From: Candidatus Eiseniibacteriota bacterium
Lineage (GTDB): Bacteria; Eisenbacteria; RBG-16-71-46
DNA: 64,000 bases
NCBI GenBank assembly: GCA_963707915.1
Contig: OY970178.1
Span: forward strand, 3,321,599 to 3,385,598
Direction: 5' to 3'
Each line of letters begins with the position of its first letter. The stretch's first letter is position 1. Below the pieces are notes generated by a model. That model was not told the origin of the DNA and did no database searches. It saw only the letters and a list, made by a program, of their open reading frames with translations. The translations under genes and the position numbers were made by a program. This document shows, in pieces, positions 19,610-63,834 of the stretch.

Positions 19610-19651
19610 GGCGGAGAGGTGCTGGAGCGGTTGAACAGGACGGTCTCGAAA
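19610..19651 (+). repeat. 42-bp direct repeat, copy 2: tRNA-Ser(CGA) 5' half (att-like)
   Basis: Identical to 16334-16375. Diverges right after CTCGAAA. Confidence 0.65.
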
Positions 19652-25913: not shown

Positions 25914-25923
25914 GCTGTATGCG

Positions 25924-26556: not shown

Positions 26557-26565
26557 TCTTGCACC

Positions 26566-27438: not shown

Positions 27439-27440
27439 GC

Positions 27441-28070: not shown

Positions 28071-28124
28071 CGCTCACGAACTGAGTCCACAACGCATTAA
28101 CTAACTAAGAGAAGGAGATAACGT

Positions 28125-29544: not shown

Positions 29545-29942
29545 GGTTCAGGCTCCAGCGAGTTGAGTACATGCCCAAGACCCTGGAGCCGGGGGTCCTG
29601 TACGTCTCAGAAGCTTTCGGCACAGCAGCGCACCTCTGCGCCTGCGGTTGCGGCTCCAAGATCAGGACACCACTCGGCCCCACTGAGTGGCACGTCGAGG
29701 TTACGAAGCGGGGACCAAGCCTGTATCCCTCCGTCGGGAACTGGCAGAAGCCCTGTCAGTCGCACTACTGGATTCGCGAGGGCAACGTGCGGTGGGCAGC
29801 GAAATGGACATCGGAGGAGATTGCCACGGGTCGCAGGCACGAGGAGGAACGCCGACACGCGTACTACGACTCCGGTCGTCCAGCGCCCGGGAATATCCTG
29901 GCGAGATTCTGGTGCTGGCTGAAGCGTCTGCTTGCTCGCTGA
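29541..29942 (+). CDS. DUF6527-like protein (candidate Ubl protease of Bub-type operons)
   Basis: 'LYVSEAFGTAAHLCACGCGSKIRTPL...YPSVGNWQKPCQSHYWIREGNVRW'. ATGA overlap with the E1 gene. Confidence 0.5.
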   Translation: MRFRLQRVEYMPKTLEPGVLYVSEAFGTAAHLCACGCGSKIRTPLGPTEWHVEVTKRGPSLYPSVGNWQKPCQSHYWIREGNVRWAAKWTSEEIATGRRHEEERRHAYYDSGRPAPGNILARFWCWLKRLLAR

Positions 29943-29986
29943 CCCAGCTTGTCCACAGAAGGTGCCACTCTAGTGTCGTACCCCCT

Positions 29987-30295
29987 CTAGGCAGCTTCGC
30001 TGCTTCGTGGCACACTGACTTCACCCTTGAGCCGGTCGAGCTTCGGCAGCGGAATCCACGCGTGTTTCTTGAGCCAAGTTCGAACGTCGTCCCTCATGGC
30101 GCACCAGCGTCGTTTTGGTGCATCCACCCCCACGAAAAGTGGATAACGAGCAGACCGACCGCCAATCAAGGCGGTTTTGTTGTTTGCGGTAGGGGGGTGG
30201 ACGTGACAACAGAGACGCGAAACGGTGAGTTATACCCAGAAGCGAGGACGTTCGAACTCGCGGCAAGAGTTCGAAGCGACTACTTGACCAGCCCC
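29987..30295 (-). pseudogene. Relic A of a serine-recombinase 3' end
   Basis: Minus strand 'QVVASN...' and 'WCAMRDDVRTWLKKHAWIPLPKLDRLKGE' parallel the intact 'QAVASNF...WCALRDDVRTWLKKDKWLPLPRLDRLVES'. It is interrupted by a stop and frameshifts. A 21-nt stretch is identical: 30074-30094 = 32087-32107. Confidence 0.7.
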
Positions 30296-30409
30296 TGAGG
30301 ACATGGTTGGGTGACTAAGTGGATTGTTCGTTTCGCACAACATTCAATTCGTTCCTCCCTTGCCTGATGCTCGCACGCATGGTGTGCGCAGCAGTCCAGG
30401 GGAGGAACG

Positions 30410-38123: not shown

Positions 38124-38326
38124 CGATGCCACCTCGGCCGCAACAAGCCAACCCCGTAGGCCTCGGGGGCAGCAACCTCGATCACCTTGTTCGACGCATG
38201 CGGTGTGCGGTACGGTATGCAGTTGCCGTTGAGGGAAATGACTGGGGCGCGGCGACTTCGCTGCAAGACGCCAGGTTCGTCCGAGCAATCGGACCCCCAG
38301 CCTAGACTGCGGAACGCAAGCAAGAC

Positions 38327-38719
38327 TCACTCTAAGTACGTGATCTCTCCCTCTTTGTAGCCAGGGGCGAGCACGGTGAAGAAGCACAAATCCGAATCGC
38401 CTAGATTTCGGATGCTCAGCGCGTCACCAGATTTCACATAGATAAAGACTGGATGCTCTGGATCAGCAGTGAATGGGCCGCTCACTGAAGTCGCGGTCCT
38501 TACCTCGAACTGGCCACCGAAAAGGAAGAGGACTTCGTCGCCGCTATTGGGTCTATTCTGAAAGTGGTGACTTTGTTGCTCTCTCGGTCGAACCCGAGCA
38601 AAGACAGCTGTCGCATTAGGCGTATCACTCAGAATTCTACCGTGGAGGTTCTCCTCCTGAAAGAACTCCTCGGGTCGCTCGGTGACTCTGATGATTTGTG
38701 TTTCGATCATTTCGCTCAT
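38327..38719 (-). CDS. Cupin-fold protein
   Basis: 130 aa, 'HHFQNRPNSGDEVLFLFGGQFEV...IYVKSGDALSIRN'. Confidence 0.5.
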   Translation of the reverse strand: MSEMIETQIIRVTERPEEFFQEENLHGRILSDTPNATAVFARVRPREQQSHHFQNRPNSGDEVLFLFGGQFEVRTATSVSGPFTADPEHPVFIYVKSGDALSIRNLGDSDLCFFTVLAPGYKEGEITYLE

Positions 38720-38826
38720 ATAGCGCCCACCGGGTTATTGGCTAAAGTGGCCTGTACAGGAGAAGGCTAGCACAAACGCTCTCGCGCCGCCACTCGGCAA
38801 TCACGGTCAGAGGAGGATGACAGCTT

Positions 38827-39654
38827 ATGCGCCCAGCCGATATCGAACAAGTCCTCGCACTGAACCGCGCCCATTGGGAGGCAGCCAGCAAGGTCCACGC
38901 ATCATCTCCATATTATCAAGTGGATGCCGTTCGTGCTGGAGGCTGTAGCCTAAGTGAGGTCGAACTCGCCGAACTCGGCAGCGTTGCTGGCCAGAGAGGT
39001 CTCCACGTCCAATGCGGCATTGGCTTGGAGACAATCTCGCTTGTTCGGCTCGGAGCTGCGATGACGGGGGTCGACTTCGCACCGTCGGCCGTCGAGCAAG
39101 CTCAGATGCTAGCTAACGAATGCGGTGTGTCGGCTGAGTTCCGTGTGGCCGACGTACTTGATCTTAAGAACATATCACCTGAACCGTTTGACTTCATCTA
39201 CACGTCCCACGGAGTGCTTAGATGGCTACCAGCACTTGGCACGTGGGCGGCGGGACTCTATCGCCACTTACGGCCGGGAGGGCTACTGTATGTGTTCGAG
39301 ATACACCCGTTGGTGTACCGAATTCGCAAGCTCGATGCGACGAGTGTCGTGTTAGGAGGCAACTACTTTCTTGAGAGCCCCCGGGTCGTCAGACTTGCCT
39401 CTACGCATGCGGGTAATATAGCCCTTGGCGATGCCATGCGTGTGGTTCACACGGATTGGTCCATAGGTACGCTTCTGACGCACCTCCTCGACGCGGGGCT
39501 CTGCCTTCAGAGCTACCATGAGCATGGGGGATGCAGCTATAATAGGAACGGGTGGTTTCCAAGGCGGGTTGGAGGACTGTGGCACCCCGTAGCCGAGACA
39601 CTGCCAATGCCGTTGTCGTTCTCCCTGAGACTCCGCAGACCAACGGCCGTCTAG
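38827..39654 (+). CDS. Class I SAM-dependent methyltransferase
   Basis: 'LHVQCGIGLETISLVRLGAAMTGVDFAPSAVEQA' motif I / post-I. Confidence 0.7.
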   Translation: MRPADIEQVLALNRAHWEAASKVHASSPYYQVDAVRAGGCSLSEVELAELGSVAGQRGLHVQCGIGLETISLVRLGAAMTGVDFAPSAVEQAQMLANECGVSAEFRVADVLDLKNISPEPFDFIYTSHGVLRWLPALGTWAAGLYRHLRPGGLLYVFEIHPLVYRIRKLDATSVVLGGNYFLESPRVVRLASTHAGNIALGDAMRVVHTDWSIGTLLTHLLDAGLCLQSYHEHGGCSYNRNGWFPRRVGGLWHPVAETLPMPLSFSLRLRRPTAV

Positions 39655-39727
39655 GCTGCGGACGCCCGCGTGACGGAGTCTCAGATGTTGCCGGGCATGG
39701 TCGAGCGTTACATAGGAGGTGCGCTAC

Positions 39728-40459
39728 GTGACCTCAGCACGAGATGAATTGTTCGTGGTGACGGGAGGGACTCAAGGGATTGGCCTTGCCATAGCGCAGG
39801 CGGCAGCTGCCAGTGGCCGGTCCGAGAGCGTTATCGTGGTCTCAAGGCATCCGGGGGTCGAGGGAGATGGTTCCTGGGAACATGTGGCTGCGGACCTGTC
39901 GACGCGTCCCGGTATTGATGCGGCGATAGCAGGCATACGCTCCTATCAGCGCCCGGTGCGCGTCCTCGTGAACAACGCCGGGGCCATATTGGAGAACAAC
40001 GCGTTTAGCGCGCTCACCTGGGAGACGATGTTGGCGAGTATTGTCCTGCATTCGATCGCGCCCGTCCTCTTGACGCGAGGTCTCGAGAAGGAGCTCAGGG
40101 CTGCTCAGGATGCGAGCGTGATCAATATCGGGTCAATTTATGGCGGAATACCAGATCCGGAGGTGTTCGCCTATGTGTGCGGGAAGGCGAGCCTTCCTAT
40201 TGTGACGGAAATGATGGCGAGAGCACTTGCTCCAGACGTCCGCGTCAACTGCGTCCAGCCTGGGCATATTGAGACCGCCATGACACGGGCGGCCACCGCT
40301 GAATTCCGGCAACACGTGATTGCGCATACTGATGTGCAGAGGCTTGGGGAGCCATCTGAAGTCGCGGCCGTCGTGATGTTTCTAGCGTCGGCAGCGTCAG
40401 GGTTTATTAACGGGACGAGTATACGCCTGGATGGCGGGTATTGGGGCGGGGTGTCGTGA
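39728..40459 (+). CDS. Short-chain dehydrogenase/reductase
   Basis: 'VTGGTQGIGLA', 'NNAG', 'YVCGKAS' (YxxxK). AGGAGG RBS 8 nt upstream of GTG 39728. Confidence 0.75.
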   Translation: MTSARDELFVVTGGTQGIGLAIAQAAAASGRSESVIVVSRHPGVEGDGSWEHVAADLSTRPGIDAAIAGIRSYQRPVRVLVNNAGAILENNAFSALTWETMLASIVLHSIAPVLLTRGLEKELRAAQDASVINIGSIYGGIPDPEVFAYVCGKASLPIVTEMMARALAPDVRVNCVQPGHIETAMTRAATAEFRQHVIAHTDVQRLGEPSEVAAVVMFLASAASGFINGTSIRLDGGYWGGVS

Positions 40460-42798
40460 GCGCCGACACGCTTGGCGCTACGCTGTCGAAGGTAGTGGAC
40501 ACCTTGCGTGTCGCGGCCACAACCGACTCCTCTGGGGGGGCGGCATGGTGGGGGCTCGCCGAGAGAGCGGCAGCTGTGATTGGCGTGACCGCAATGGGTG
40601 TGCTCGCCGGGGCATGGCTGGGTGTGAAGTGGGTGATAAGGAAGTTGGCGGAGAGGTCGGATAGGAAGGTGTTCGGCGGCGACTACTTGATACTGCGTCG
40701 GGACGCTCAGCGAGATGGGAGCTTCGATACCAAGGGGCTTACGAGTCTTCGGACCGCCATCCGGGTTCGATCTGACGAACTCTCACAGATGGTTCGGAGG
40801 AGCGTGCAGGAAGAGATGCGGCAGGAGACCAGTCGCTTGGCAGCTGGTTCCGCGTCCGTGTCATATGGGGAGATCTTGGCCGGGGCGCCTCTCTTGATGC
40901 CATGCGGAACCGTGACACTAGATGGCACGCCGCGTCTCGAGGTGGCGGGCCTCGTTAAGGAGTCAGCGGAAGCCAGGATTCCAATCGACCGATCCGCCCC
41001 AGGATATCAGCGAACGCTTCTCCTCGGAAAAGCTGGGGAAGGTAAGAGCCTATTGTGCCTTCAGGCCAAATACAAGCTTATGAACTCCCAGTCAGGGCAA
41101 GCACCATGGTGCCTAGTGATCTCTGCTCGCGACTTTGAGGGTGATCGCCCACACGACTCGGATATTGGGTCAAGAGAGTGGTGTGGGCGTCGGATAGCCG
41201 ACCGATACGTGGGGGGGGAGCCATCGCCCCTTGAGGTGCGGTTGCTAAGCGAATTGGCGGATAGCAGTGCCGTGCTGATTGTCGATGGATTGGACGAGAT
41301 CGGCCAGCTTCTCACCTATGCAGAGTTGCAGTCGCTATTGTCGTCGTGGCTGTTTGCGCGAGTGGCGATTGCCACCGCGCGGTTGTCGTTCTACTATTCC
41401 CACCTGCTTTCGGCGCGACCTCTTGACGGCATGAGACTCCTGCTTCTCGGCACTCCCACCGAGGCCTCGCGAAAGGCGTTTGTTAGAGCACTCTGTGGGC
41501 GGCAAAGGAACGCGGACCCGGGCAAGGTTTGCGCGCTGGTGTTGGACATGCTAGGCCGGCTGCCGAGTATGGCGGAGTTGACGAAGACGCCTCTGCTCCT
41601 GCTGATGGCTGCAGAGGTAGCCGCGCAGGCACCGGAAGGGCCACCGTTCCTTGACGCGATAGGTGTCTACGAGCGGTTTGTTCAGGAATTCGTGACGAAG
41701 GAAGTTGAGAGGAGCCACAAACGAATCTCCCCTACCCTAATGAACCATCTCGTGGAGGATGTCGCGTGGCTTGCCTTTAGCAGTCGGAATACTCAGGCAG
41801 GGCTGCCGCGGGTTGGTCAGGCGGGTCTCAGGGCGTGTATTGCCCAGACGTTCGGCTCAGGCGATCAAGACGCGCTCGATCACATCGCCAATGCCCTGTC
41901 CACGTCTGCATTGCTCTCTGTGCCTCCCAGCGATCGCCGTGGTGGAGGTGTTGTCTTCAACCATGAGACGTTCGCTGAATTCCTTATTGCGCGGCGCCTC
42001 TACGCGTGGCTATTGGGAGACCGCAGTACGGGATCGGACTTCTTTGAACACATCGAAACGCCTGAGATTTCGTTCTACGTCAAAGAATATCTCGCGAGAC
42101 TCCGTGCAGAGAGCGAGGCCCTTCGGGCTGGGCGCGTCCGTCTGTCGCAGCTAGTGGAAGACTTGTCGCGCGCTCGACAGAGTGCGACAGATGAGACGAA
42201 GGCGCGCTTGGCTGCGTTTGCACTTGGGCAAGCCGCGTACTATCTGGGCATGGTAGCCGGCCCAGAGGAGCGGAAGACGCTGAGGGAGTTCGCTCACGGG
42301 GAAACAGACTTCTGGGTGAGGAGGGCGGCGGCGATAGGTCTGGCCATGGGAGGCGACGCATCTGACTACCATGCTTTGATTGATGAGATGCGCGGCGGGA
42401 TTGAAGCGGGCGACTACACCTTGTCTCGAAAGAGCATAGCAATGGACCTTGGGTTCTACGGTGACCAGCCATTTGATCGCCTTGACCCGAGCCGCGATTG
42501 TGGTGGGGAGGCCTGTAGGCGGCTGGTGACTCGAGTTGCGCACCAGGCGCGATTCGCCGTGGAATTCGCGAACTGGCGGAGCGATCTCTTTGACCTCGTC
42601 TATCTAGGCAAATACCGATCTGAGTCAAAGAGAGAGTTTGAATCCGTTCTCCGAGAAGTACGCGGAAGTCTGGAAGAGTCGCTTGCTGTTATTGAGGCGA
42701 CTTCTGAGAACTCCAAGTATCCTGAGATCAGGGAAGTGCGCGAGATGCTCGCTTGCTTCGATGTAGTGCCGGGGGCAGCTGGCGGAGACTTACCTTAG
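40456..42798 (+). CDS. STAND NTPase: N-terminal TM helix + NACHT + C-terminal HEAT-like repeats (bacterial NLR-like)
   Basis: 'VIGVTAMGVLAGAWLGV' TM helix, Walker A 'GKAGEGKSLL', Walker B 'LIVDGLDEI', 'WVRRAAAIGLAMGGD' HEAT-like. GTGA overlap with the SDR stop. Confidence 0.65.
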   Translation: MSADTLGATLSKVVDTLRVAATTDSSGGAAWWGLAERAAAVIGVTAMGVLAGAWLGVKWVIRKLAERSDRKVFGGDYLILRRDAQRDGSFDTKGLTSLRTAIRVRSDELSQMVRRSVQEEMRQETSRLAAGSASVSYGEILAGAPLLMPCGTVTLDGTPRLEVAGLVKESAEARIPIDRSAPGYQRTLLLGKAGEGKSLLCLQAKYKLMNSQSGQAPWCLVISARDFEGDRPHDSDIGSREWCGRRIADRYVGGEPSPLEVRLLSELADSSAVLIVDGLDEIGQLLTYAELQSLLSSWLFARVAIATARLSFYYSHLLSARPLDGMRLLLLGTPTEASRKAFVRALCGRQRNADPGKVCALVLDMLGRLPSMAELTKTPLLLLMAAEVAAQAPEGPPFLDAIGVYERFVQEFVTKEVERSHKRISPTLMNHLVEDVAWLAFSSRNTQAGLPRVGQAGLRACIAQTFGSGDQDALDHIANALSTSALLSVPPSDRRGGGVVFNHETFAEFLIARRLYAWLLGDRSTGSDFFEHIETPEISFYVKEYLARLRAESEALRAGRVRLSQLVEDLSRARQSATDETKARLAAFALGQAAYYLGMVAGPEERKTLREFAHGETDFWVRRAAAIGLAMGGDASDYHALIDEMRGGIEAGDYTLSRKSIAMDLGFYGDQPFDRLDPSRDCGGEACRRLVTRVAHQARFAVEFANWRSDLFDLVYLGKYRSESKREFESVLREVRGSLEESLAVIEATSENSKYPEIREVREMLACFDVVPGAAGGDLP

Positions 42799-48521: not shown

Positions 48522-49412
48522 GTGCCGGGCAGCACCGTTCACACCGTTGGAGAGCCGCAGCGGCTTGGCGCAAAGCCGGTACTCCGCTGGGCAGGTAGCA
48601 AGCGCAAGCAGCTGGCCCGATTGAGGACCTTCTGGTCGGCGGACCACGTCCGATACGTCGAGCCATTCGTTGGCTCTGCTTGCCTGTTCTTTGAACTGGC
48701 CCCCACCAGCGCGATCTTGGGTGACACAAATGCCCAGCTAGTGGAGTTCTACACCGTCCTCCGCACCGACCCGCGCCGATTGCACCGACGCTTGGCGCAC
48801 ATCCCCAGAGATGTCGCGTCCTACTACAAGTGGCGCGAGATGGTCCCCGCGAGGTTGGACAAGGAAACGCGGGCCCTGAGGTTCCTCTATCTCAACCGCA
48901 ACTGCTTCAACGGGATCTACCGAACCAACGTCAAGGGCGAGTTCAATGTTCCGTTTGGCAAGAAAGTGGGAGCATACCCAACCGCAATTGACTTCGCGCG
49001 CTGCGCCGATCTGCTGAAGCACGTCAAGCTGGTTGCTCAGGACTTCGAGAAGACTCTGGAAGGAGTTGGCTCGGGTGACTTCGTTTACCTGGATCCCCCC
49101 TACGCGCTGGACTCGCGAAGGGTGTTTCGTCAGTACGGACCAGGATCATTCAAGACGACGGACGTAGCTCGGCTCGGCAAGTCCCTCAAGCGGGCGCATG
49201 CACGAGGTGCGCATTTCCTCGTTTCCTACGCAGACTGTACGGCCTCTCGCGTCCTGGCGAGGGAGTGGGTCTCGGTTCGCCTGCCGATCCAACGCCATGT
49301 CGCGGGTTTCGCGGACGAACGCAGGCGGGCCTATGAGTGGCTCATCTCCAACCAGCCGATACCTTCGGGAGTTGGAAGTAAGACTCCAAAGCGAACGGAG
49401 CCCAGGGCATGA
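48522..49412 (+). CDS. dam: Dam-family (D12 class) DNA N6-adenine methyltransferase
   Basis: 'LRWAGSKRKQL', 'EPFVGSACLFF', 'NRNCFNGIYRTNVKGEFNVPFG', 'YLDPPY'. Confidence 0.85.
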   Translation: MPGSTVHTVGEPQRLGAKPVLRWAGSKRKQLARLRTFWSADHVRYVEPFVGSACLFFELAPTSAILGDTNAQLVEFYTVLRTDPRRLHRRLAHIPRDVASYYKWREMVPARLDKETRALRFLYLNRNCFNGIYRTNVKGEFNVPFGKKVGAYPTAIDFARCADLLKHVKLVAQDFEKTLEGVGSGDFVYLDPPYALDSRRVFRQYGPGSFKTTDVARLGKSLKRAHARGAHFLVSYADCTASRVLAREWVSVRLPIQRHVAGFADERRRAYEWLISNQPIPSGVGSKTPKRTEPRA

Positions 49413-50374
49413 GCAAGAAACCACATGACTATGGGGTACGGGTGATCGGCGTGAAGGAGATCGCGACGGCGAGCCTGTATGCGAATCCTCACAACCCCCG
49501 TCGTCTCTTCGACAGGCAGGACATGGACGCCCTGCGCGACTCCATTGACAAGCTTGGCATCCTCGTGCCCCTTACGGTCTATAGGGAAGCCCGGTCTGGT
49601 CACTACGTAATCCTCGATGGACAACGTCGATGGATGTGCGCGACCGAGCTGAAATTGAAGGTCGTTCCTGTCAACGAAGTTGCCGAGCCTGATCTTGTCC
49701 AGAATATTGTGACGATGTTCCAGATTCATCGGCTTCGAAGAGACTGGGAGCTAATGCCGACGGCGCTCAAACTCCAACTGCTCATGAATGAGCTGGATGA
49801 GAAGAACCCCCGGCGCTTGGCCGAACTCACAGCCCTCGATGAAGCAGTGGTCGTGCGCTGCAAGAAGCTCTTGTCCTACCCCAAGCGCTACCAGGACATG
49901 ATGCTAACCGCGGAGCCGAGCAGCCGGATCAAGGCGGATTTCTTCATCGAACTATATGTGGTTCGAAATGATCGTTTCGTGAACGGGCTTGAGTGGTACG
50001 ACCGGAACAACTTCACGGACGCCATGCTAGAGAAGATCGAGGTCGGCGGCCTGAAGTCTGTGACCGACTTCCGCAAGGTAAAACAGCACATAAACAACGC
50101 AGTCAAGGCAAACAAGAATGTGGTCATCGCACGTCGACTTCGGGAATTCGCGCAGGATCCAGTTCTTACCACAGACCATCTTGACATCGACTCGGCCAGA
50201 ATCGCGACGGGCGCGCGAAAGATGATTGCCGCGGTCGAGAAACTCCACGCGCAGATTGATTCTATTGAGCTCGAGGAGTATGTCGGCGAGAACGAGATGT
50301 GGGAGGGCCTGAAGAAACTATCTGAGCTGATCCGCAAGCGCCTTCGTGCTCTGGGCTGGAGGCTTGATCAATGA
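49409..50374 (+). CDS. ParB-N/DGQHR-like domain protein
   Basis: 'NPHNPRRLFD...LRDSIDKLGILVPLTVY...YVILDGQRRWMCA'. ATGA overlaps on both sides. Confidence 0.65.
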   Translation: MSKKPHDYGVRVIGVKEIATASLYANPHNPRRLFDRQDMDALRDSIDKLGILVPLTVYREARSGHYVILDGQRRWMCATELKLKVVPVNEVAEPDLVQNIVTMFQIHRLRRDWELMPTALKLQLLMNELDEKNPRRLAELTALDEAVVVRCKKLLSYPKRYQDMMLTAEPSSRIKADFFIELYVVRNDRFVNGLEWYDRNNFTDAMLEKIEVGGLKSVTDFRKVKQHINNAVKANKNVVIARRLREFAQDPVLTTDHLDIDSARIATGARKMIAAVEKLHAQIDSIELEEYVGENEMWEGLKKLSELIRKRLRALGWRLDQ

Positions 50375-51198
50375 GGGTGCCTCGGCCGCCCGGCGCCTCT
50401 ATCGACAAGAAACGCATGGCCAGGTGGAAGAACGAATTCACCGCCTACAGGAGCTCGGTGACCGAATTCTCCATCTCCAGCTGGCTTGACCAGTTCAAGG
50501 CGCATGAACGGGACACTGCCGCAAGAGTGCTCGACGCGGTCGAGTTCTATGGTGACGAGCGCATTGCCACGGCATTTCGGAAGGGGCTCGAAGCGATCCC
50601 GGGGTGGAGCAGCACGCAGAGCGAACGCTCAGGCCGTTGGAGGTTCGCACCCTTTTCCCGCACCCCAGGCGAGAGTGGCGATGCAATGATGCACCGCTTC
50701 CGGATGGCCAACAGGCTGACCGGCAAGGCGCACGATGGCATGTTCAAGTACGCAAGCGAACTGATGGACGAGAAGCTCGGACCGGAAGACACGGTAATTC
50801 TGGTCGACGACTTCGTGGCAACTGGGGACTCGGTGTGCTCGAAGTGGGCCGACGGGTTCGAGGAATTGGTCGGAGAGGCTGGGTCGGTGTTTCTGGTGCT
50901 CGTGGCGGCCGTAACTTCTGCTCAGAAGCGGATCATGAAAGAGACTGGGCTGACCGTGCTCGCCGCCCATGATCTTGGCAAGGCTGACAACGTATTTGAG
51001 GATGGCTGTCGGCACTTCAAGCCGGCCGAGAAGGCGTGCCTGCTGCGCTACGGAGCAATCGCAGATAAGAAGCGGCCAAAGGGCTACGGGGACTGCGGGC
51101 TGGTCGTTGTATTTCAGCACCGGTGCCCTAACAACTCATTGCCGATCCTGCACGCGGAACACAAGAAATGGACGGCGCTGTTCCCTCGGAACAGCTAG
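50371..51198 (+). CDS. Phosphoribosyltransferase-like protein
   Basis: PRPP-loop-like 'TVILVDDFVATGDSV'. The rest is unrecognised. Confidence 0.5.
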   Translation: MRVPRPPGASIDKKRMARWKNEFTAYRSSVTEFSISSWLDQFKAHERDTAARVLDAVEFYGDERIATAFRKGLEAIPGWSSTQSERSGRWRFAPFSRTPGESGDAMMHRFRMANRLTGKAHDGMFKYASELMDEKLGPEDTVILVDDFVATGDSVCSKWADGFEELVGEAGSVFLVLVAAVTSAQKRIMKETGLTVLAAHDLGKADNVFEDGCRHFKPAEKACLLRYGAIADKKRPKGYGDCGLVVVFQHRCPNNSLPILHAEHKKWTALFPRNS

Positions 51199-56097: not shown

Positions 56098-57618
56098 CTA
56101 ACGGAGGCGTGGCAACGGGGTCCGCACCCGGTAGTACCGTTGATTCCCGCGGCGCACTTCGATGAGGTCTTCTCTGATGGCGCCCCGCAGTCGACCAATC
56201 CGTTTTCGTGCCGCCTCCAGACTGCGGATCCCCTTCAGGTCGTGCTTGACATCGTAGCTGCGAGCTTCGTGTTGGCCGTCGGCCTGACGATCGAGTAGAT
56301 ACCGAAGCAGCTCGACCTCTGAGCGACGGATCTTGCTTACGGCCTCTCCCGTGCTCAGGTCGCAGACGGTCCCGCTCTGTGGACGGACCAAGTGGCTCGC
56401 CAGCTGTATCTCCGGCTCCTGCAAGTTGCGGAGTTGAAGCACTAAGTCCGTCACGGCCCGCTGGAAGTCCTTGAGCCGGAATGCCTGCTGGTATGGATGC
56501 GGGCCCGTGAGCTCCACAACACGGTGGAGTGCTTTCTCCAACTTCTCGCGCGTTGAGTAGAGCATGCGCCTGCTGAGGTAGCGGGGCTCCCTGAGCAGGT
56601 CCTCAGCCAGTTGCCGGTAGAGGATCGCTTGGGGCGGGTCGAGGGACACGATCAGCGCCATGGCGCGGCCGAAGAACTCCCGTGCTTTCTCGAGGTCCCC
56701 CTCGTGACCGCGCTCAAGGTGCAGCCGGGCCAAATCCTTCAGCGGGTAGACCATCATCCTCTTCATGGACATCTGCTCGGCGATGGCGAGCGCAGCCCGG
56801 AAGTCCTCCTCGGCGCCGCGCAAGTCGCCGCGAGCGAATCGAAGGTCAGCGCGGCCCATGTAGGCAGCGTGCAACGTTCCCGGCATCGGTTCCTCGAGAC
56901 AGCCTGCAATCACGGCCTCGTAGATTGCGGCGGCTTCATCGAGCTTACCGAGCGTCTTGAGCACACCGGCGCGACGCTCATCGATCGTGCGCACCAAGCG
57001 GGGAGCGTTCAGCGGTAGCGCCAGTTCGCGGGCGCGCCGCTGCCACTCCAGGGCCTCGTCCGGGCGCTCAAGGACTGCCGACAGCCGCCCGACGTCCGAC
57101 GCCGTCGTCGCGGCGCGGCGCCACTGTTCGGTTTCGATGGCGCGACGGTGTGCCTCCACCATCCTCGCACGGGCGCGTTCAAAGTCGCCCTCAAGCTCGT
57201 AGCGGTGGGCGAAGAGCGCCTCCACGTCAGCCCCGCGACTGGCAAGCTTGGGACTCTTCTGAATCAGGCGTTGCAGTTCCTCCAGCGCCTGGCCGCCTTC
57301 AGCGAAACGAGCCTGCTGGTGAAGCATGAAGGCGCGGTGGTGGTAGGACGTGTAGATCTGCCAGGCCGGCGCGCGCTTCGCGGCGCTGTGACGCTCAAAC
57401 GCCCCGAACAAGCGCAGAGCATCTGTGTATTCCCCGCGCTGGTATGCCCCTTCCGCTCGCACCCACAGCTCGTCGGCGGACGGTCCCGGCGGTTCCCCGG
57501 CCGACAGCGTGGACGCCAAGCGCATCACGGCGTCCGAGTCGCCGCGGTGGGCGGCGGCCAGAGCCTTCGTGATGGTGGCCTTGGGGCTGGTGGGCATGGT
57601 CAGTATCTCCACATCCAT
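56098..57618 (-). CDS. TPR-repeat protein with a C-terminal OmpR/PhoB-type winged helix
   Basis: AGGAGAGG RBS before ATG 57618. Multiple 34-aa TPR-like repeats. C-terminus 'EVELLRYLLDR...RKRIGRLRGAIREDLIEVRRGNQRYYRV'. Confidence 0.6.
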   Translation of the reverse strand: MDVEILTMPTSPKATITKALAAAHRGDSDAVMRLASTLSAGEPPGPSADELWVRAEGAYQRGEYTDALRLFGAFERHSAAKRAPAWQIYTSYHHRAFMLHQQARFAEGGQALEELQRLIQKSPKLASRGADVEALFAHRYELEGDFERARARMVEAHRRAIETEQWRRAATTASDVGRLSAVLERPDEALEWQRRARELALPLNAPRLVRTIDERRAGVLKTLGKLDEAAAIYEAVIAGCLEEPMPGTLHAAYMGRADLRFARGDLRGAEEDFRAALAIAEQMSMKRMMVYPLKDLARLHLERGHEGDLEKAREFFGRAMALIVSLDPPQAILYRQLAEDLLREPRYLSRRMLYSTREKLEKALHRVVELTGPHPYQQAFRLKDFQRAVTDLVLQLRNLQEPEIQLASHLVRPQSGTVCDLSTGEAVSKIRRSEVELLRYLLDRQADGQHEARSYDVKHDLKGIRSLEAARKRIGRLRGAIREDLIEVRRGNQRYYRVRTPLPRLR

Positions 57619-57916
57619 TCTACCTCTCCTGCCGTTCGGCTCCATGTGGACAAGACATGCGTGTAGGTCCGTTGTCCAGTCGAGCCGCCGTACACCCCGA
57701 CACTGGATCTCGGAGGGCAAGACACCGAGGTCCAGCTCAAGCCGGGGTGAGCTCCCGCGACGGCGTGACGCACACGACCGTCCGCAGCACCGCGAAGACG
57801 CGCTTCAGAAGTCCCACACGAGGGTCACGACCATGAACGCGAACAGGGTGCTGGTGGGCGACGACCGGGATCTGATTCCGGCTGGCGGCTTCCACTAGCA
57901 GTAGCTCCCGGGCCGG

Positions 57917-58348
57917 GTGGCGGCACTCCGCCGTCGCCCGGCGGCCCGGGAACCTGGGCGCGGTTCTAATCGGGAGGGCATTGAGTTGTGGTGGCTGATC
58001 GGTCTGCTAGCGGCGCTGGCGGCATCCACCCAAGACAGCACCCGGAACACGGGGGTCAGCGCAGCGAGAAGCCCAGTGTCTGATAACTCGCGCCTGTTGA
58101 CCTACCGCTCCCGCGACGGCCGCTCCTTCTTCCGGTTCCGCTTCTCGCCATTTGGCGCCGGCGTGCGGATCTTCATCCTCGAGTTCCCAAATCCACAGAT
58201 CGGCTCCTGCCACGTGCTGCACGACGACCGCGGCGCGGCCTACATCTGCTGGTCACGGGCCATCAACTCCCTGTCTGACGCGAAGGCGGTCGCAGCGCTC
58301 TGGGCCGAGGCAACGCTCGTCTACCAGCGCACCGGCCACGTCTTCTAA
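57917..58348 (+). CDS. E2 (UBC-fold)-like protein
   Basis: 'FRFRFSPFGAGVRIFILEFPNP...HVLHDDRGAAYICW' mimics the HPN...G.IC catalytic loop. The start is uncertain (GTG 57917, or TTG 57986 after GGGAGGG). Confidence 0.45.
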   Translation: MAALRRRPAAREPGRGSNREGIELWWLIGLLAALAASTQDSTRNTGVSAARSPVSDNSRLLTYRSRDGRSFFRFRFSPFGAGVRIFILEFPNPQIGSCHVLHDDRGAAYICWSRAINSLSDAKAVAALWAEATLVYQRTGHVF

Positions 58349-59880
58349 TGGAGGCTACCAACTTGATCAAGTTGAGCATCGTTTCGCACGGCCTCGTCTT
58401 GAAGGAGGGGGGATTCGGCCCTGCTGTGGCAGAGCCCGCCCAGGTGATGCGGTTCACCGCATCCGCGCACCGTCAGATCATGGGCGCGATCGGCACGAAG
58501 GAGCCCGAGAACGGGATGCCGCTCGGTGGCGACCCGGGCGACGGCATCGTCCGCCACGTCATCTTCGACGACAGCGGCGAGCGGTCCAGCGGCACCTACT
58601 CGCCCGACCATGTCCGCCTGACCGCACTGCTGGACGATTGGTGGAGGCCTTCGGGGATCCGCCTGCTGGGGTTTGTCCACTCGCATCCGGGCCGATTCGC
58701 GCGCCCTTCCGACGGGGATCTGAAGTACGCCGGCGAGATCCTCGAGGCCAACCCGCACCTCAACCGGTTCCTGATGCCCATCGTGACCGTTGAGCCAAAG
58801 CCGGTCGTGCACCCGTTCGTCGTGGTCCGGACTGCCAGGGGCGTCGTGGTGAAGCCGGCTGTGCTGGAGGTCCTCGACGAGGTGCTGGTCGCGCCGGGGG
58901 AGAAGGCCACGCCGCCGGTGAAGACCGTGACCAAGACGGAGTCGCCCCGTGCCATCCGTGAGGCGACCTTCCAGCGGGTGGTTAGGGCTTACGACCTCCC
59001 GCACCTGCGCTACTGCCGCGTGGTCGTTCCTGGTGATGGGGGTGCTGCTGGCTACGTCGAGGATCTCGTGCGGGCGGGCATCCACGACCTAGTGCTCATT
59101 GATCCCGATGTTGTCACTGCCACGAACCTCGCCACCCAGCAGGTCTACCGCCGAGACCTGGGCCGGCCAAAGGTCGAGGCGCTCGCCGACCGACTGCGTG
59201 ACATCAACCCTGCCGTCGAAGTGCTGGCCATCCAGCGGGACTTTAATGAGTTCACCGACGCCGAGATCGAATCGTTGCTCGGGCTCGACTGCGCCCGACC
59301 CCCGATCCGCACGCTCGTGTGCGGCTGCACCGACAACTTCTACGCCCAGGCGCGCGTCAACCGCGTCGGCCTGCAGTTCGGCGTGCCCACGCTCTGTGCG
59401 CAGGTCTACGCCGAGGGCCGGGGCGTCGAGATCACCTTCACCTACCCGGGCATCACCCCGGCATGCCATCGCTGCGTCCTGCGGTCGCGCTACGACGCCT
59501 ACCTGAAGGAGGGCTACACCAACACCGTGACGTCCGACGGCACGCCGGTCGGCTGCACGACACGGCTGAACGCGACCAAGTTCTTCGTGGCCATGGCCTT
59601 GCTGCACCACGGCACGGCGCATCCGCGCTGGGGCCGGACGCTGGAGCGCATCGGGAACCGCAACCTGGTGCAGCTGCGGCTTGACCCCGACTTGGAACTC
59701 CCGGTGTTCGACCGCGTGCTGGCCGGAGACAGGGCTCGCATCTTCACGGACGAGGCCGTGTGGCTCCCGCAGTTGCCCGAAGGCCGGGCTACCGGGCGCG
59801 CCCCTTGTCCCGACTGTGGCGGTACGGGCGACCTGCGTGCGGCCATCGGCTCAATCCCGGACACCCGGCTGCCCCGATGA
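58348..59880 (+). CDS. JAB/MPN metalloprotease fused to a ThiF/E1 adenylation domain
   Basis: 'GFVHSHPGRFARPSDGDL' JAMM motif. 'VVVPGDGGAAGYVEDL', 'LIDPDVVTATNLATQ', Zn sites 'CHRC' and 'CPDCGG'. TAATG overlap with the E2-like gene. Confidence 0.75.
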   Translation: MEATNLIKLSIVSHGLVLKEGGFGPAVAEPAQVMRFTASAHRQIMGAIGTKEPENGMPLGGDPGDGIVRHVIFDDSGERSSGTYSPDHVRLTALLDDWWRPSGIRLLGFVHSHPGRFARPSDGDLKYAGEILEANPHLNRFLMPIVTVEPKPVVHPFVVVRTARGVVVKPAVLEVLDEVLVAPGEKATPPVKTVTKTESPRAIREATFQRVVRAYDLPHLRYCRVVVPGDGGAAGYVEDLVRAGIHDLVLIDPDVVTATNLATQQVYRRDLGRPKVEALADRLRDINPAVEVLAIQRDFNEFTDAEIESLLGLDCARPPIRTLVCGCTDNFYAQARVNRVGLQFGVPTLCAQVYAEGRGVEITFTYPGITPACHRCVLRSRYDAYLKEGYTNTVTSDGTPVGCTTRLNATKFFVAMALLHHGTAHPRWGRTLERIGNRNLVQLRLDPDLELPVFDRVLAGDRARIFTDEAVWLPQLPEGRATGRAPCPDCGGTGDLRAAIGSIPDTRLPR

Positions 59881-59963
59881 AGCTGTCCACCTCGACCCTG
59901 GACTCGTGCGCCGTCGCGACGGCGGTCTCCCTGTCGGTCGCGCCCGGGAGGACCTCGAGCTAG

Positions 59964-60569
59964 ATGCGCCGCCAGTACGCCCTCATCTATGCCGACCCGC
60001 CGTGGCGCTACAACAGCAAGCGCCACGGCTACGGTGGCGCCGAGGACCATTACCCGACGATGGCCTTGGAGGACATCAAGGCCATCCGGGTACCGGCGGC
60101 TGATGACTGCGCGCTGTTCCTTTGGGCCACCATGCCCTTGCTCCGACAGGCGTTCGAGGTCATCGACGCCTGGGGCTTCAAGTACAAGACCACGGCGTTC
60201 TGCTGGATGAAACAGACGAAGTCCGGCGTCGGCCTGGTCACGGGCCTTGGCTTCTGGACCAGGTCGAACGCCGAGGTCTGTCTGTTGGCGACACGGGGAC
60301 GGCCGCGCCCCGTGTCCCACCGAGTCCACTCGGTCGTGATTGGTCCACGTCGACGTCACAGCCAGAAGCCAGACGAGGTCCGGGAGCGGATCGTGGAGCT
60401 GATGGGCAACGTGCCGCGGCTGGAGATGTTCGCCCGGTCGCGGACGCCCGGCTGGGACGCCTGGGGCAATGAGGTCAAGAGCTCAGTCCAGATCCAGGTG
60501 CCCGGGCTGGACAGCGCCGGGCGCACGGAGTCTGAACGGAGGTGGCGCCGGTGCTCGATCGCCTCCTGA
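59964..60569 (+). CDS. MT-A70-family DNA methyltransferase
   Basis: 'LIYADPPWRY', 'LFLWAT', 'WGFKYKTTAFCWMK', 'HSQKPDEV'. Confidence 0.8.
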   Translation: MRRQYALIYADPPWRYNSKRHGYGGAEDHYPTMALEDIKAIRVPAADDCALFLWATMPLLRQAFEVIDAWGFKYKTTAFCWMKQTKSGVGLVTGLGFWTRSNAEVCLLATRGRPRPVSHRVHSVVIGPRRRHSQKPDEVRERIVELMGNVPRLEMFARSRTPGWDAWGNEVKSSVQIQVPGLDSAGRTESERRWRRCSIAS

Positions 60570-60922
60570 AGCTGATCGTCACCCTGACCCTGCTGTTCTT
60601 CCTGCTGCAGGCGGTCATCGGAGTCCTGGTCCGCGTCCTTGACGCGGCCCTCCATGGGGCCGCCTCCGCCCTCGGGCACGCTGGGAACTTCCTCGGCAAC
60701 GTTCTGGTGATCGTAGTGGAGGTCATCTTCTTGGTCGGGCTCATCGTCCGAGGGGCGCAGTTCGTTGCCAACCGGGATCCTCGTGCAGCTCGGGAACGAG
60801 CGACACGAGATCGAGCCGTTCGCCAGCGTGTCCGCCGTCCGACCGAAGGCGTGCCGCCGGTCGAGAGTCACGCCGAGGTGCTGGACGACCCCGACCCGGC
60901 TATCGGGGAGGAGCGCGAATGA
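60542..60922 (+). CDS. Small membrane protein (hypothetical)
   Basis: Two hydrophobic helices. ATGA overlap with the downstream ATPase. Confidence 0.4.
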   Translation: MAPVLDRLLKLIVTLTLLFFLLQAVIGVLVRVLDAALHGAASALGHAGNFLGNVLVIVVEVIFLVGLIVRGAQFVANRDPRAARERATRDRAVRQRVRRPTEGVPPVESHAEVLDDPDPAIGEERE

Positions 60923-62472
60923 TGGTCGAGCATCTCGCCGCCCAGCTGCGCCGGCTCCTCAAGGGCTCCGAAGCGGACACCGCGAGGCGTTGGCACGCCA
61001 CCACCGAGCGCGCGCGGAACGCCGACGCTCACGCCCGCCGCGACGCGTTTCTTCGCCAGATGCGCGCCACGCCCGGGGACGGGAAGGTGCTGCTCGGCCG
61101 CGCGCAAGCGCGCGAGGGCGAGTTCCAGTGGTGCGGCATGCCGCTGCCGACACTCTGCTCCATGCACCTCGGCATCTCTGGCGCGACTGGCACGGGCAAG
61201 AGCTTCATGGTCGCATCGCAGCTCTTTCAGCTCGTCACGCTCGGCGTGCCGGTCATCCTCACGGACATGAAGTCTGAACTCGCCGACCTGATGTTGAACG
61301 TGGTCGTCCCCGCGGTCGTTGCCCGCGGTATGGAAGATCTGATCGACCGGGTGCGCGTCGTTCGTCCATTCGATGCAGGGCGCGTGCCCTTGCTCCGTCT
61401 GACTGAGCCTGAGCCTCGAGTCTCTCGGCAGATCCAGAGCATGAACATCGCCCAGGGCCTGAGCGAATCCGTCGGCGAGGGGCTGGGTGTGCGCATGTTG
61501 CGGGCGATGTTGCCCATGGCGGGCTTGGCCGTGGAGCGCAACTTGCCGCTCCCGGTGTTGACGGACTGGCTGCGCTCGCCTGAGGTATTCGCGCGGGCGG
61601 CAGCCTCGTCTTCCGATCCGATCGTCCGCTCGTATGCTCTTCACGAACTGCCGCGAGAGAACCGTAGCTCGCTGGACGCGCTTCGGGCCCGGCTCGACCT
61701 GCTCTTCCACCTGCCCGAAGTGCGCGATGCGTTGTCCGCTCCGCGCTGCCTGTCGTTCGATGACGCTCTCGACTCGGGCGTGACCATCCTGGACTTCGGC
61801 TCGCCTCCGGGCGGCGCCGAGGACGCCATGAAGTTCATCGCCGGTCCGGTCGCGGGCCGGTTAGGGCGCGCTATCCTCTCGCGGCAGGTGTCGGATAACA
61901 CGCCCCCCGCGGTCGTCGCGTTCGAAGAATTCCAGCAACTCCTCAGCTCGTATCAGGTCGAGATGTACAAGCGTCTACTGGCGCTTTGCCGTTTCAAACG
62001 CGTCTGTCTGTGGTTCTCGAACCAGCAGCCGGCCCAGATCGCTGAGGCAGACCGGACGCTGCTGCGCATCCTGCGCACCAACCTCGGAGCCGAGTGCATC
62101 TTCCGCTCGTCGGTCGAGGACGCCCGCACTCTGTCCGAGGGGCTCTCGACGCGTTCCGCCGACGAGACGTTGACGCAGGCGCGCAGCCGAGTCGTCGAAG
62201 AGATCGCAACGCTCCCGAAGCGTTCGTTCTTCTTCTGGTTGCGAGATTCCGCGTTCGGGCCACAGCGGCTACAGAGCCCGCGCGTCAACATCGGTGCGCT
62301 CAAGGCGTCTGCGGCGTCGCTCACGCCCGAGCAACGCGAGCGCATTCGCCTCGGCACCGTCTCGATCGAGCGGCCGGTGGACAACCCGTCGCCTACGCCC
62401 GCGCCCGAACCGGATCCCCGGGTTGCGCCACTTCCCCCACAGAAGCGCCGCCGGGCGCCGCGGCTGGGGTAG
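60919..62472 (+). CDS. TraD/VirD4-like (T4CP / DUF87-type) P-loop ATPase
   Basis: Walker A 'GISGATGTGKS', Walker B-like 'PAVVAFEEFQ'. It sits beside the relaxase-like gene. Confidence 0.55.
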   Translation: MMVEHLAAQLRRLLKGSEADTARRWHATTERARNADAHARRDAFLRQMRATPGDGKVLLGRAQAREGEFQWCGMPLPTLCSMHLGISGATGTGKSFMVASQLFQLVTLGVPVILTDMKSELADLMLNVVVPAVVARGMEDLIDRVRVVRPFDAGRVPLLRLTEPEPRVSRQIQSMNIAQGLSESVGEGLGVRMLRAMLPMAGLAVERNLPLPVLTDWLRSPEVFARAAASSSDPIVRSYALHELPRENRSSLDALRARLDLLFHLPEVRDALSAPRCLSFDDALDSGVTILDFGSPPGGAEDAMKFIAGPVAGRLGRAILSRQVSDNTPPAVVAFEEFQQLLSSYQVEMYKRLLALCRFKRVCLWFSNQQPAQIAEADRTLLRILRTNLGAECIFRSSVEDARTLSEGLSTRSADETLTQARSRVVEEIATLPKRSFFFWLRDSAFGPQRLQSPRVNIGALKASAASLTPEQRERIRLGTVSIERPVDNPSPTPAPEPDPRVAPLPPQKRRRAPRLG

Positions 62473-62485: not shown

Positions 62486-62803
62486 GTGCGAGAACTCCAA
62501 ACTGTGCTCCGGCTTCTGCGAGCCGTCTTGGGGATTGCCCTGTGGTGCGCGGGCACGGCGTGGCTCGGTGTCACGACGCTCTGGCGTGCGGGCATGTTGC
62601 TTTCGCGATTCAAGGCCATCTCCGCCCAGGTACGGCTCTGCCCCCGTGGGCACGAGGTGCCGGTCTACAGGCTGTGGGACTGCCACTGCGGCAGCCGAGT
62701 CGAGGGCTGGGCATTCGCGCCCTGCTCGATCTGCCGCGAGACGGCCGGCTACGTCCCATGCCCGACCTGTGGCCTGCCCGTGAGGAATCCACTCCTGCCA
62801 TGA
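62486..62803 (+). CDS. TM + zinc-ribbon small protein
   Basis: AGGGAGGA RBS 8 nt before GTG 62486. 'CPRGH...CHCG...CSIC...CPTCG'. Confidence 0.4.
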   Translation: MRELQTVLRLLRAVLGIALWCAGTAWLGVTTLWRAGMLLSRFKAISAQVRLCPRGHEVPVYRLWDCHCGSRVEGWAFAPCSICRETAGYVPCPTCGLPVRNPLLP

Positions 62804-63588
62804 CCCCGCTCGTCCGTCGTCAGCCCCGCCATCACCGTCGCCGCGGCGTCGCCGTTCAGCTCACTGAGCGAGACGGAGCGGTGCTCCACGCCCTTGGTCG
62901 CTTCAGGCTTGCCCGGACGTCAGACCTCGTGGCCTACGCCTTCGCCGGAGTCCGGAAAGACACGGCCGCAGTCCGGCTCCGGCGGCTGTTCGACGGCCGC
63001 TTCCTGGCCGTGCTGCCGCCCGAGCAGGGCAAAGAGAACGTCTACCGCTTGGGGCCGGCCGGGAAGGTCCACCTCGCCGAGGAGGGAGTCGGTGTCGGTC
63101 GTGTTCCCCGTGGAGGACTCGAGCACCACCTCGCCATCGTCGAAACCTGGGTCGCCGTCGCCGGGCTCGACCGCCTCGAACTCGAGCGCGCTCTGCCCGA
63201 CTGGGAGCTTCGCGAGCAGTTCAATACCGCCGAGCTGCACGTCGTGCCTGACCTCTTCCTTCTCGTCCGCGTTGGCGAACGGCAACACGCCGTCGCCGTC
63301 GAGGTCGACCGTGGCACCGAGTCGCTGGCCGTCCTCAACCGAAAGCTGGAGGCATATCGCTCGCTCTGGGGGCAGGCGCCTGGGCTGTTCGGCTACCGGC
63401 AGTTCGGCATCGCGCTCGTCTGCCACACCCCGGCCCGTCGTGCCCAGCTCGCCTCCGCACTCAAGAGAGCATGGGTTGTTCCGCATGTGTTGTGGACGTG
63501 TTCTGAAGGGCCGAATACCGCTGTGCATCAGCTCATTCAGGGATTGCTGGCTCCCCTTGAGGCCTCCCCTTACCCCAAGGGGACCTGA
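62800..63588 (+). CDS. Replication-relaxation (Replic_Relax) family protein
   Basis: 'LTERDGAVLHALGRFRLARTSDL', 'LEHHLAIVETWVAV', 'PDLFLLV...AVAVEVDRGTES'. Confidence 0.6.
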   Translation: MTPLVRRQPRHHRRRGVAVQLTERDGAVLHALGRFRLARTSDLVAYAFAGVRKDTAAVRLRRLFDGRFLAVLPPEQGKENVYRLGPAGKVHLAEEGVGVGRVPRGGLEHHLAIVETWVAVAGLDRLELERALPDWELREQFNTAELHVVPDLFLLVRVGERQHAVAVEVDRGTESLAVLNRKLEAYRSLWGQAPGLFGYRQFGIALVCHTPARRAQLASALKRAWVVPHVLWTCSEGPNTAVHQLIQGLLAPLEASPYPKGT

Positions 63589-63594: not shown

Positions 63595-63834
63595 ATGCGA
63601 TCCGAGCGAGCAGAGCCTAACGACGAAGGTCGTGCTCTTGATCCGGCTGAAGCCGAGCGCGAACGAACTCTGCCGCACCTCCTCACGCTACCCGAGGTGG
63701 CGGTGTTCCTGAGCGTCAGCCCAAAGACCGTCCGGCGGTTGGTCAGTCGCGGTCTGCCGTGCGTACGTCTGGGCCGGGTGGTACGTTTCCGGCAGGCGGA
63801 CCTTCTCCGGTTCGTGGAGGCACGGAAGGAATAG
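63595..63834 (+). CDS. xis: Excisionase-family HTH protein
   Basis: 'LLTLPEVAVFLSVSPKTVRRLVSRGLPCVRLGRVVRFRQADLLRFV'. Confidence 0.7.
   Translation: MRSERAEPNDEGRALDPAEAERERTLPHLLTLPEVAVFLSVSPKTVRRLVSRGLPCVRLGRVVRFRQADLLRFVEARKE

Follow-up and report, generated by a model that had tools for sequence, protein, structure and literature searches.

What might a pair of genes resembling a ubiquitin-type conjugation system do when no modifier gene accompanies it and it sits at the edge of a DNA-transfer module? The question is raised by a stretch of 64,000 nucleotides from a Candidatus Eiseniibacteriota genome (GenBank assembly GCA_963707915.1, contig OY970178.1, positions 3,321,599 to 3,385,598 of the forward strand), which as a whole is called the window below. 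Towards its right end, a short open reading frame (ORF) for a putatively E2-like protein is joined to a gene that encodes a JAMM (JAB) peptidase and a ThiF-type (E1) adenylation domain in one chain. From sequence and structure models we hypothesize that the two proteins form a minimal conjugation module of the Bub-like (6e) type, carried as an accessory at the border between the cargo and the transfer genes of an integrated element, and we give this reading a probability of about 0.5. A first-pass annotation, made from the letters of the window alone, had placed four ORFs in this region, all of which are present. The two that make up the pair, with their associated signals, are as follows.

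57972..57978, plus strand: Shine-Dalgarno-like GGGAGGG, 7 nt 5' of the TTG codon of the small ORF (direct reading of the sequence)
57986..58348, plus strand: small protein, plausibly E2-like, 120 amino acids (aa) (homologue lengths, alignments, model, fold search)
58346..58350, plus strand: TAATG stop/start overlap joining the small ORF and the fusion gene (sequence reading)
58348..59880, plus strand: JAB-E1 fusion, 510 aa (Pfam, alignment of 117 homologues, AlphaFold2, Foldseek)

The small ORF had been listed at 57917..58348 (plus strand) as a protein of 143 aa counted from GTG 57917. The ORF exists, but this version is likely over-extended: the start is most likely the in-frame TTG 57986, giving 120 aa, because that codon is preceded by the GGGAGGG motif and because homologues (n = 104) are mostly 117-119 aa long with the N-terminus MWWL. 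The HPN-like loop described for this ORF, HVLHDDRGAAYIC, is present, and the TAATG coupling of the two genes was found where it had been annotated.

The fusion protein and its small neighbour

The larger protein had been described as a JAMM-ThiF fusion with two CxxC pairs, and both the Pfam domains and the alignment agree, the residues concerned being 98-100% kept among 117 homologues. The peptidase spans residues ~30-178 (Prok-JAB, E 2.4e-5; its 24.6 bits fall just below the 25-bit cut-off), a disordered linker residues 179-196, and the adenylation domain residues ~200-510 (ThiF, E 1.6e-21). Across the 117 aligned homologues, the JAMM residues are conserved at 98% (E54) and 100% (H111, H113, S121 and D124), and the adenylation-site residues G229/G231/G232, D254, R268, K275 and D329, whose roles are assigned by analogy, at 99-100%; Q264 is another conserved residue of the adenylation site, and the two sets together are conserved at 96-100%. 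The CxxC pairs lie at 373/376 and 487/490 and are kept in 98-100%. The crossover region (377-404) contains no Cys conserved in the alignment, the window's Cys403 occurring in just 3 of the 117; in the same region R381 and S396 are present in 100% and Y382 in 98%. When the AlphaFold2 model of the fusion (mean predicted local distance difference test score, pLDDT, 79.5) was searched with Foldseek, the Citrobacter BubCD entries were the best matches, with both domains aligned (E 6e-15, ~14% identity), followed by Cap2, UBA5 and ThiF. By sequence, the best match of the E1 domain is MoeB (1e-15), and MoeB, TcdA and UBA5 stand ahead of MccB (1e-10) and PaaA (6e-10).

The small protein begins with a short hydrophobic N-terminus (MWWL...), continues through a variable Ser/Asn-rich linker and ends in a conserved core of ~85 residues (33-120), which carries His76 and Cys88. 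No family in Pfam, NCBIfam or PADLOC matches it, and Prok-E2_B was absent from the class and from controls. A profile of 41 diverse members nevertheless retrieves 927 cluster representatives at E<=0.001 (clusters at 50% identity, from many phyla) and 640 at E<=1e-10: the family is real and large, and lies outside all curated profiles.

Four positions are invariant across the 41 members, which come from many phyla: a strand Phe, His76, Cys88 and a helix Trp. Among 150 family representatives the His is kept in 149 and the Cys in 148, and Cys75, beside His76, is restricted to the window's clade. The equivalent of Cys88 sits 11-12 residues after the His, between the last strand and the long helix. 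E2 active sites have this layout (HPN...Cys): a His flap, a Cys 11-12 residues further on, and then a long helix. The conservation of these two residues is the strongest argument for an E2-like reading, as a resemblance of layout that is drawn from sequence.

AlphaFold2 models the core with pLDDT >92 and the first 32 residues with low confidence. In the model a three-stranded meander is followed by two short strands, one on each side of the loop, and by one long helix. In a VIA structure search the best match is the E2 chain of a CdnG-E2 complex (Z 6.3, rmsd 3.4 over 98 residues), from the cyclic-oligonucleotide-based anti-phage signalling system (CBASS). Further matches are UFC1 (Z 5.2), Ubc13/Mms2 (5.0), the Cap2 E2 domain (4.7) and a chain of a Bub complex (4.5), and 18 of the top 20 entries are titled E2 or E2-variant (E2/UEV/RWD folds). 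The ESM atlas adds a weak lead, a nearby cluster (score 0.89) with E2-CBASS on 17% of its members. What the model would have in common with canonical UBC/E2 proteins and UFC1 is the beta-meander, the His-containing flap with its Cys 11-12 residues on, and the long helix. The small protein, annotated as E2-like, is thus plausibly so on its UBC-type model and its invariant His and Cys, but it is not a member of any curated E2 family.

Relatives, a repeat peptide and an AAA+ ATPase

A degenerate-pattern scan with the alignment of the fusion yielded 36 related loci from many phyla; locus scans with a single sequence had found nothing in genome contigs and one marginal fragment in metagenome contigs. 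In 29 of the 36 the JAB-E1 gene has an ORF with the small domain next to it. Among the seven loci without one, five are truncated at the 5' end of the E1 gene; in another (L022 in our numbering) the sequence stops downstream, where its nearest relatives L021 and L024 have theirs; and the remaining locus is a marginal JAB-only match. The pairing is far above chance. Several loci have two or three small-domain paralogues or tandem domains.

Two further genes recur in these relatives. Downstream of the E1 gene, in 24 of 34 non-window rows, lies a gene for an AAA+ ATPase of ~460 aa, which Pfam assigns to AAA_2 (Clp/Cdc48 type) with E 1e-27 to 1e-37. Two of these proteins (L007:9699-11087 and L008:9517-10863) match the PADLOC models PDC-M37B (~1e-20) and DolB (~1e-14), and the N-terminal ~170 residues of the AAA_2 partner belong to no family. 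Upstream of the E2-like and JAB-E1 genes, in 16 of the 36 loci, there is an ORF of 3-8 tandem units of 11-12 residues, GG[DE]x[IV]PxGTF[HR] (L007:7066-7320, L011:6939-7166, L015:6917-7255, L031:2636-3001 and 12 further loci). In eight of the 16 ORFs nothing follows the last GTF[HR]; the other eight run on for 2-25 residues. Units that are identical in amino acids within a locus differ at many synonymous sites, and a single 11-residue unit is found in 13 distinct DNA versions at 3 loci, with G+C ranging from 38% to 63%. Since identical units differ synonymously, the repeat ORF is coding and under protein-level selection. In three of the 150 representatives (P0332, P0335 and P0365) one protein contains the repeats followed directly by the E2-like domain.

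In the wider clade the operon is often found beside type IV coupling protein (T4CP)-type ATPases and recombinases (L003, L008, L015, L032 and L033), and other copies lie amid defence-type genes (TIR-NACHT, RT-Cas1, CHAT, SIR2 and PRTase-CE). One such PRTase-CE domain belongs to a 906-aa protein that adjoins the full operon of L007 (L007:3682-6402).

The clade to which the window belongs has a reduced form of this system. Neither a repeat gene nor AAA_2 is found in the window, L001, L005 (= L041), L045 and the long-branch L046, and the element L042/L044/L051 is likewise without a repeat gene; no hidden repeat peptide was detected in window-type elements with the strict pattern, nor with a loose pattern combined with a TRF scan. 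In a quick E1 tree (midpoint-rooted, no outgroup), the window's clade forms one fully supported group among AAA_2-bearing clades, the basal forks being unresolved; a secondary loss of the repeat peptide and AAA_2 fits this picture. The reduced pair is nonetheless represented by ~50 E1 clusters at 71-90% identity and by 104 small-protein clusters at 50-84%, with all motifs kept, and on this sequence record it looks functional.

Two further observations concern the members of this clade. The contig of L001 is labelled Phycisphaeraceae; its JAB-E1 protein is 74% identical to that of the window, and it has the pair, the ATPase, the Zn-ribbon protein, Replic_Relax, Xis and Int in common with it. 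The right arm is accordingly common to metagenome-assembled genomes of different phyla (the window and L005/L045 are Eisenbacteria-type), explained either by transfer between phyla or by an error in binning. Two window-type elements with divergent pairs, L045 (G082:C3) and L046 (G082:C21), are present in one genome of the same family, whose second E1 is a much weaker profile match (E 1e-148 vs 4e-247) on a long branch.

A proposed conjugation module and its rivals

The architecture of the pair has a precedent: in Table 1 of Iyer et al. 2006 (PMC1779556), row 6e joins a JAB-E1 fusion with an E2/RWD-like protein encoded separately, an arrangement now called Type I Bub. According to the Bub preprint (Ye et al., bioRxiv 10.1101/2024.11.21.623953), in Type I Bub (6E.1) a Ubl-E2 fusion (Ubl, ubiquitin-like protein), BubAB, is cleaved by the JAB-E1 fusion BubCD, and BubE is a DUF6527 protease; the Bub E1 has no crossover cysteine and uses a tyrosine, and the Bub E2 uses Ser/His in oxyester chemistry. 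The window's pair resembles this system in having JAB followed by E1 in one protein with an E2-like gene immediately upstream, in a Cys-less crossover region with a conserved Tyr, in the fusion by some relatives of the putative modifier ahead of the E2-like domain (as BubAB does with its Ubl), and in that BubCD is the closest solved structure to the fusion. It differs in that its E2-like family keeps Cys/His in place of Ser/His, in that the relatives have an AAA_2 ATPase and a repeat peptide, neither of which occurs in Bub, and in its site beside a DNA-transfer module. It differs also in having no room for a fused Ubl, since only the 32 low-confidence residues stand ahead of the core in the small protein, and in its surroundings: Pfam and NCBIfam detect no beta-grasp Ubl family among the window's neighbouring ORFs scanned and no cyclase there either, as had been annotated.

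Like CBASS Cap2/Cap3, the pair would combine E1, E2 and JAB activities (predicted here) without a dedicated Ubl gene and on a mobile island; the fold search matched the Cap2 E2 domain, and the PADLOC E1-E2 models match weakly (~1e-12), over the adenylation domain only. The arrangement differs, as the first-pass annotation had pointed out: Cap2 is an E2-E1 fusion with JAB separate as Cap3 and a CD-NTase adjacent, none of which is the case here, where the E2-like protein is separate and JAB is fused to E1.

For the repeat peptide of the relatives, the nearest comparison is with polyubiquitin and Pup. The processing of polyubiquitin and the recognition of Pup or ubiquitin by unfoldases are general knowledge and serve here as an analogy. 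The likeness consists of identical units head to tail, a short variable C-terminal extension, and a place beside a peptidase, an activating enzyme and an AAA+ ATPase; unlike those modifiers, the units are only 11-17 residues long, end in GTF[HR] instead of GG and are expected to have no fold, and no proteasome-type partner was seen.

A Bub-like module of this kind would work as follows. The ThiF-type domain would adenylate a C-terminal carboxylate, and the acyl group would be transferred to Cys88 of the small UBC-like protein with the assistance of His76, possibly by way of crossover-loop Tyr382 or Ser396, a relay considered because the E1 has no conserved crossover cysteine. The acyl group borne by Cys88 would then be handed to a target amine, and the fused JAMM peptidase would mature the C-terminus of the modifier, reverse the conjugation, or both. 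In most relatives the modifier is likely the tandem-repeat peptide ending in GTF[HR], rather than a beta-grasp protein, and the AAA_2 ATPase, of unfoldase type, would probably be its reader. In the window's clade, the hydrophobic N-terminus of the E2-like protein, which is followed by Arg-containing linker residues, may act as a membrane anchor beside the DNA-translocation genes; its composition is compatible with an anchor that leaves the domain cytoplasmic, near a membrane protein and a translocase. Stated in full, the proposal would be that the modifier is an 11-residue peptide, cut by JAB from a polyubiquitin-style precursor, activated by E1, borne by the Cys of the E2-like protein and read by the AAA+ ATPase, and that the window's clade is a derived form which has lost peptide and unfoldase and whose E2-like enzyme, anchored in the membrane by the translocase, tags a transfer or host protein in conjugative transfer or establishment. 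This full version is tentative, and we consider it more apt to fail in some part than to hold as a whole.

Several findings weigh against a Bub-like module in general. With Pfam at E<=10, 28 of 29 members of the small-protein family match no family at all and one has a chance DUF match, and a PDB profile search with the small protein gave no match. Its ~85-residue core has no sequence similarity to canonical UBC proteins that could be detected, and the model has neither their N-terminal helix (helix 1) nor their C-terminal helices (3 and 4). Structure prediction, which had been suggested as the check for a UBC fold, gives a divided answer: the top VIA matches are E2-type, but at Z just 4-6.3, a range in which the tool warns of a mere common arrangement, and Foldseek against the PDB returns nothing at E<=0.001. 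The low-range Z-scores and the missing helices 1, 3 and 4 are the reason why the label used here is "E2-like" and goes no further. The BubCD alignments of the fusion reach TM-scores of only 0.37-0.42, and compared with MoeB, TcdA or UBA5, neither Bub nor Cap2 is any nearer to its E1 domain by sequence. Pfam detects no DUF6527 in 12 neighbouring ORFs or in 10 related loci, the rest of the genome not having been searched. Finally, because the window's clade has no modifier gene, and no AAA_2, the central substrate of a conjugation module is lacking at the locus.

The gap left by the modifier could be filled by the small protein itself, if the E1 domain adenylated its C-terminal Phe end and the protein were a non-beta-grasp modifier or an auto-modified adaptor. 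All 29 members of the window's clade end at the same invariant Phe (...TG..F-COOH), 76 of the 150 representatives end <=1 residue from it, the TAATG overlap couples translation to that of the fusion, no other modifier is encoded in the clade, and Cap2 in CBASS likewise conjugates the C-terminus of a full-size protein. We still regard this as unlikely: the sole universally invariant polar residues are the loop His and Cys, which is a catalytic pattern; 74 of the 150 extend past the Phe and 13 have internal tandem domain copies without a free end; and the separate repeat peptide of the relatives suits the role of modifier better. That peptide can also be read as the precursor of a pathway like those for ribosomally synthesized and post-translationally modified peptides (RiPPs), in which the E1-like domain, in the manner of MccB and PaaA, would modify the C-terminus of a peptide and JAB would be the maturation protease, the window's copy being an orphan or acting on a precursor encoded elsewhere. 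Precursors with several cores in tandem are typical of RiPPs, repeat-peptide genes do lie beside the relatives, and the E1 has MccB and PaaA in its list of sequence matches. This too is improbable, since 10 annotated loci contain no exporter, immunity or tailoring genes, the genes that accompany the E1 code for an AAA_2 ATPase and a UBC-like Cys/His protein, fusions of the peptide with the E2-like domain occur (compare BubAB), the window's clade has no precursor, and MoeB, TcdA and UBA5 outscore MccB and PaaA.

Two simpler accounts find still less room. If the pair were a decaying remnant, functionless after the loss of the peptide and AAA_2, the place of the window's clade, a tight branch surrounded by clades most of which have AAA_2 and which often have repeats (in the midpoint-rooted tree), would be as expected; yet both genes are intact with all catalytic residues present, translational coupling and the Shine-Dalgarno motif are retained, and conservation of the pair at the identities given above extends over many clusters and to 5 other elements, which makes decay very improbable. 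The least probable account is that of a MoeB/ThiF-type enzyme of sulfur transfer or cofactor synthesis with an unrelated small neighbour. MoeB and ThiF models are indeed the top sequence matches of the E1, but its NCBIfam scores all lie far under the family cut-offs (at best 73.6 vs 275 bits), the crossover-loop cysteine is missing, there is no ThiS/MoaD or rhodanese among the neighbours scanned, and the gene is JAB-fused, sporadic and mobile, being present in 4 of the phylum's 206 genomes and in none of the 7 in the genus.

The element around the pair

The Bub-like module proposed here, if that is what the pair is, belongs to an integrated tRNA-Ser element of ~46 kb, with the pair ~6-8 kb from its right end. 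The limits of the element are set by the 5' part of the tRNA-Ser, which is repeated at 19612-19651 and at 16298-16375; a tyrosine integrase (Pfam 8e-22) and the tRNA-Ser(CGA) lie just past the right edge of the window. The features that surround the pair are as follows.

56098..57720, minus strand: divergent TPR protein, 540 aa (TPR families, E 9e-12); context only, no conserved partner
59964..60569, plus strand: MT-A70 DNA methyltransferase, 201 aa (Pfam 7e-27, PADLOC MTase_II 4e-64); variable cargo between the pair and the transfer module
60542..60922, plus strand: small membrane protein, first gene of the transfer module (hydrophobic sequence; homologues in the same position in window-type elements)
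60919..62472, plus strand: HerA/FtsK/T4CP-like ATPase with the C-terminus LG (DUF87, 1e-8)
62380-62472: C-terminal tail of the ATPase, ending Leu-Gly
62486..62803 (start approximate), plus strand: Zn-ribbon protein, conserved after the ATPase in window-type elements
62800..63588 (start approximate; listed ORF from 62482), plus strand: Replic_Relax protein (Pfam 1.4e-20)
63595..63834, plus strand: excisionase-like HTH_17 protein (Pfam 2e-13)
19612..19651, plus strand: left att-like direct repeat, identical to the 5' part of the tRNA-Ser at the right end (blastn, 40/40)
16298-16375: older left copy of the repeat (blastn, 88% over 78 bp)

In window-type elements the pair stands directly upstream of the membrane protein, ATPase, Zn-ribbon protein, Replic_Relax, HTH_17 excisionase and tyrosine integrase, and 5 other elements likewise have it at the transfer-module border, the place given in the annotation. 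It is an accessory unit at the border of cargo and transfer genes and not part of the element core, because the transfer-module ATPase is found in 23 of the 206 genomes of the phylum and the pair in 4, and because elements with the ATPase occur without JAB-E1; in one of them the ATPase is 77% identical to that of the window and its flank has no JAB-E1. The 4 genomes include that of the window, where the pair is present in a single copy, and the 7 genomes counted in the genus are the other ones.

The two genes that flank the pair were considered as possible partners, and missing conservation across related loci rules both out as members of the system. The TPR protein has no homologue in the 44 related loci searched. 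It had been taken for a TPR regulator with a winged helix; the TPR repeats are there, but no winged helix was found by Pfam with the whole protein, by Pfam at E<=1 with its last 120 aa, or by a PDB sequence search. The MT-A70 gene does follow the pair, as annotated, and among window-type elements only the window and L005/L041 have it.

The LG tail of the ATPase was considered as an E1 substrate by analogy with CD-NTase and Cap2, and rejected, since an LG ending is general to the ATPase family. Each of the 5 window-type ATPases has it. Among the 22 closed ATPase rows that have a Zn-ribbon or Replic_Relax gene next to them, the ending is LG in 20 and IG in 2, after a variable Pro-rich tail, and 14 distinct ATPase genes with an LG ending have no JAB-E1 in an upstream flank of <=1.5 kb.

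The cargo of the element is rich in defence genes: an AriA-like ATPase, two CBASS cassettes, a type I restriction-modification system, methylases and a ParB/PRTase-CE pair. The CBASS cassettes are adjacent (23521-30298), a patatin and a cyclase being followed by a cyclase, a 2TM (Cap15) effector and a DUF6791-ThiF protein. The latter agrees with the earlier view of the pair as a second ubiquitin-like machinery in the island; DUF6791 is found in 1 of the 206 genomes of the phylum, the window's own, and the 203-aa ORF that follows it (29687-30298) has no family match. The cyclases of these cassettes lie ~31 kb from the pair. At 49409-51198 a ParB-N protein precedes a PRTase-CE protein (Pfam 6e-42; PADLOC PRTase_III-A 1e-34), and at 36684-42798 a B12-binding radical-SAM protein, a methyltransferase, a short-chain dehydrogenase and a 785-aa NACHT-like protein stand in a row. 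The 3.3 kb between the two left repeats hold an AriA/PtuA-like ATPase (16657-17973) and a 292-aa ORF and resemble a small tandem or remnant element. Copies of the tRNA-Ser(CGA) 5' part bound the left side, with a related position at L047:1451-1540.

Three types of bacterial system, Cap2/3, Bil and Bub, have recently been shown to conjugate proteins. The architecture seen in the window is already known (Bub/6e); for the repeat peptide and the AAA_2 ATPase of its relatives, and for the minimal E2-like domain, we found no published description. The available parts of Iyer 2006 (PMC1779556), the Bub preprint and the 2023 Bil preprint describe no such repeat-peptide/AAA_2 system, and our literature search returned no account that connects an E2-like/JAB-E1 system with a repeat peptide, an AAA_2 ATPase or conjugative elements, although Table S1 of the Bub preprint or Burroughs, Iyer and Aravind 2009 may cover the clade. 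The main interest of the locus thus comes from what its relatives reveal. The recurrent siting by T4CP/HerA-type translocases suggests, as a matter of gene order, a role in horizontal transfer, beside phage defence or instead of it. If the repeat peptide is indeed the modifier, ubiquitin-type conjugation would work with a tag of ~11 residues, which would bear on the evolution of Ubl systems and would provide a compact, genetically encoded tagging system.

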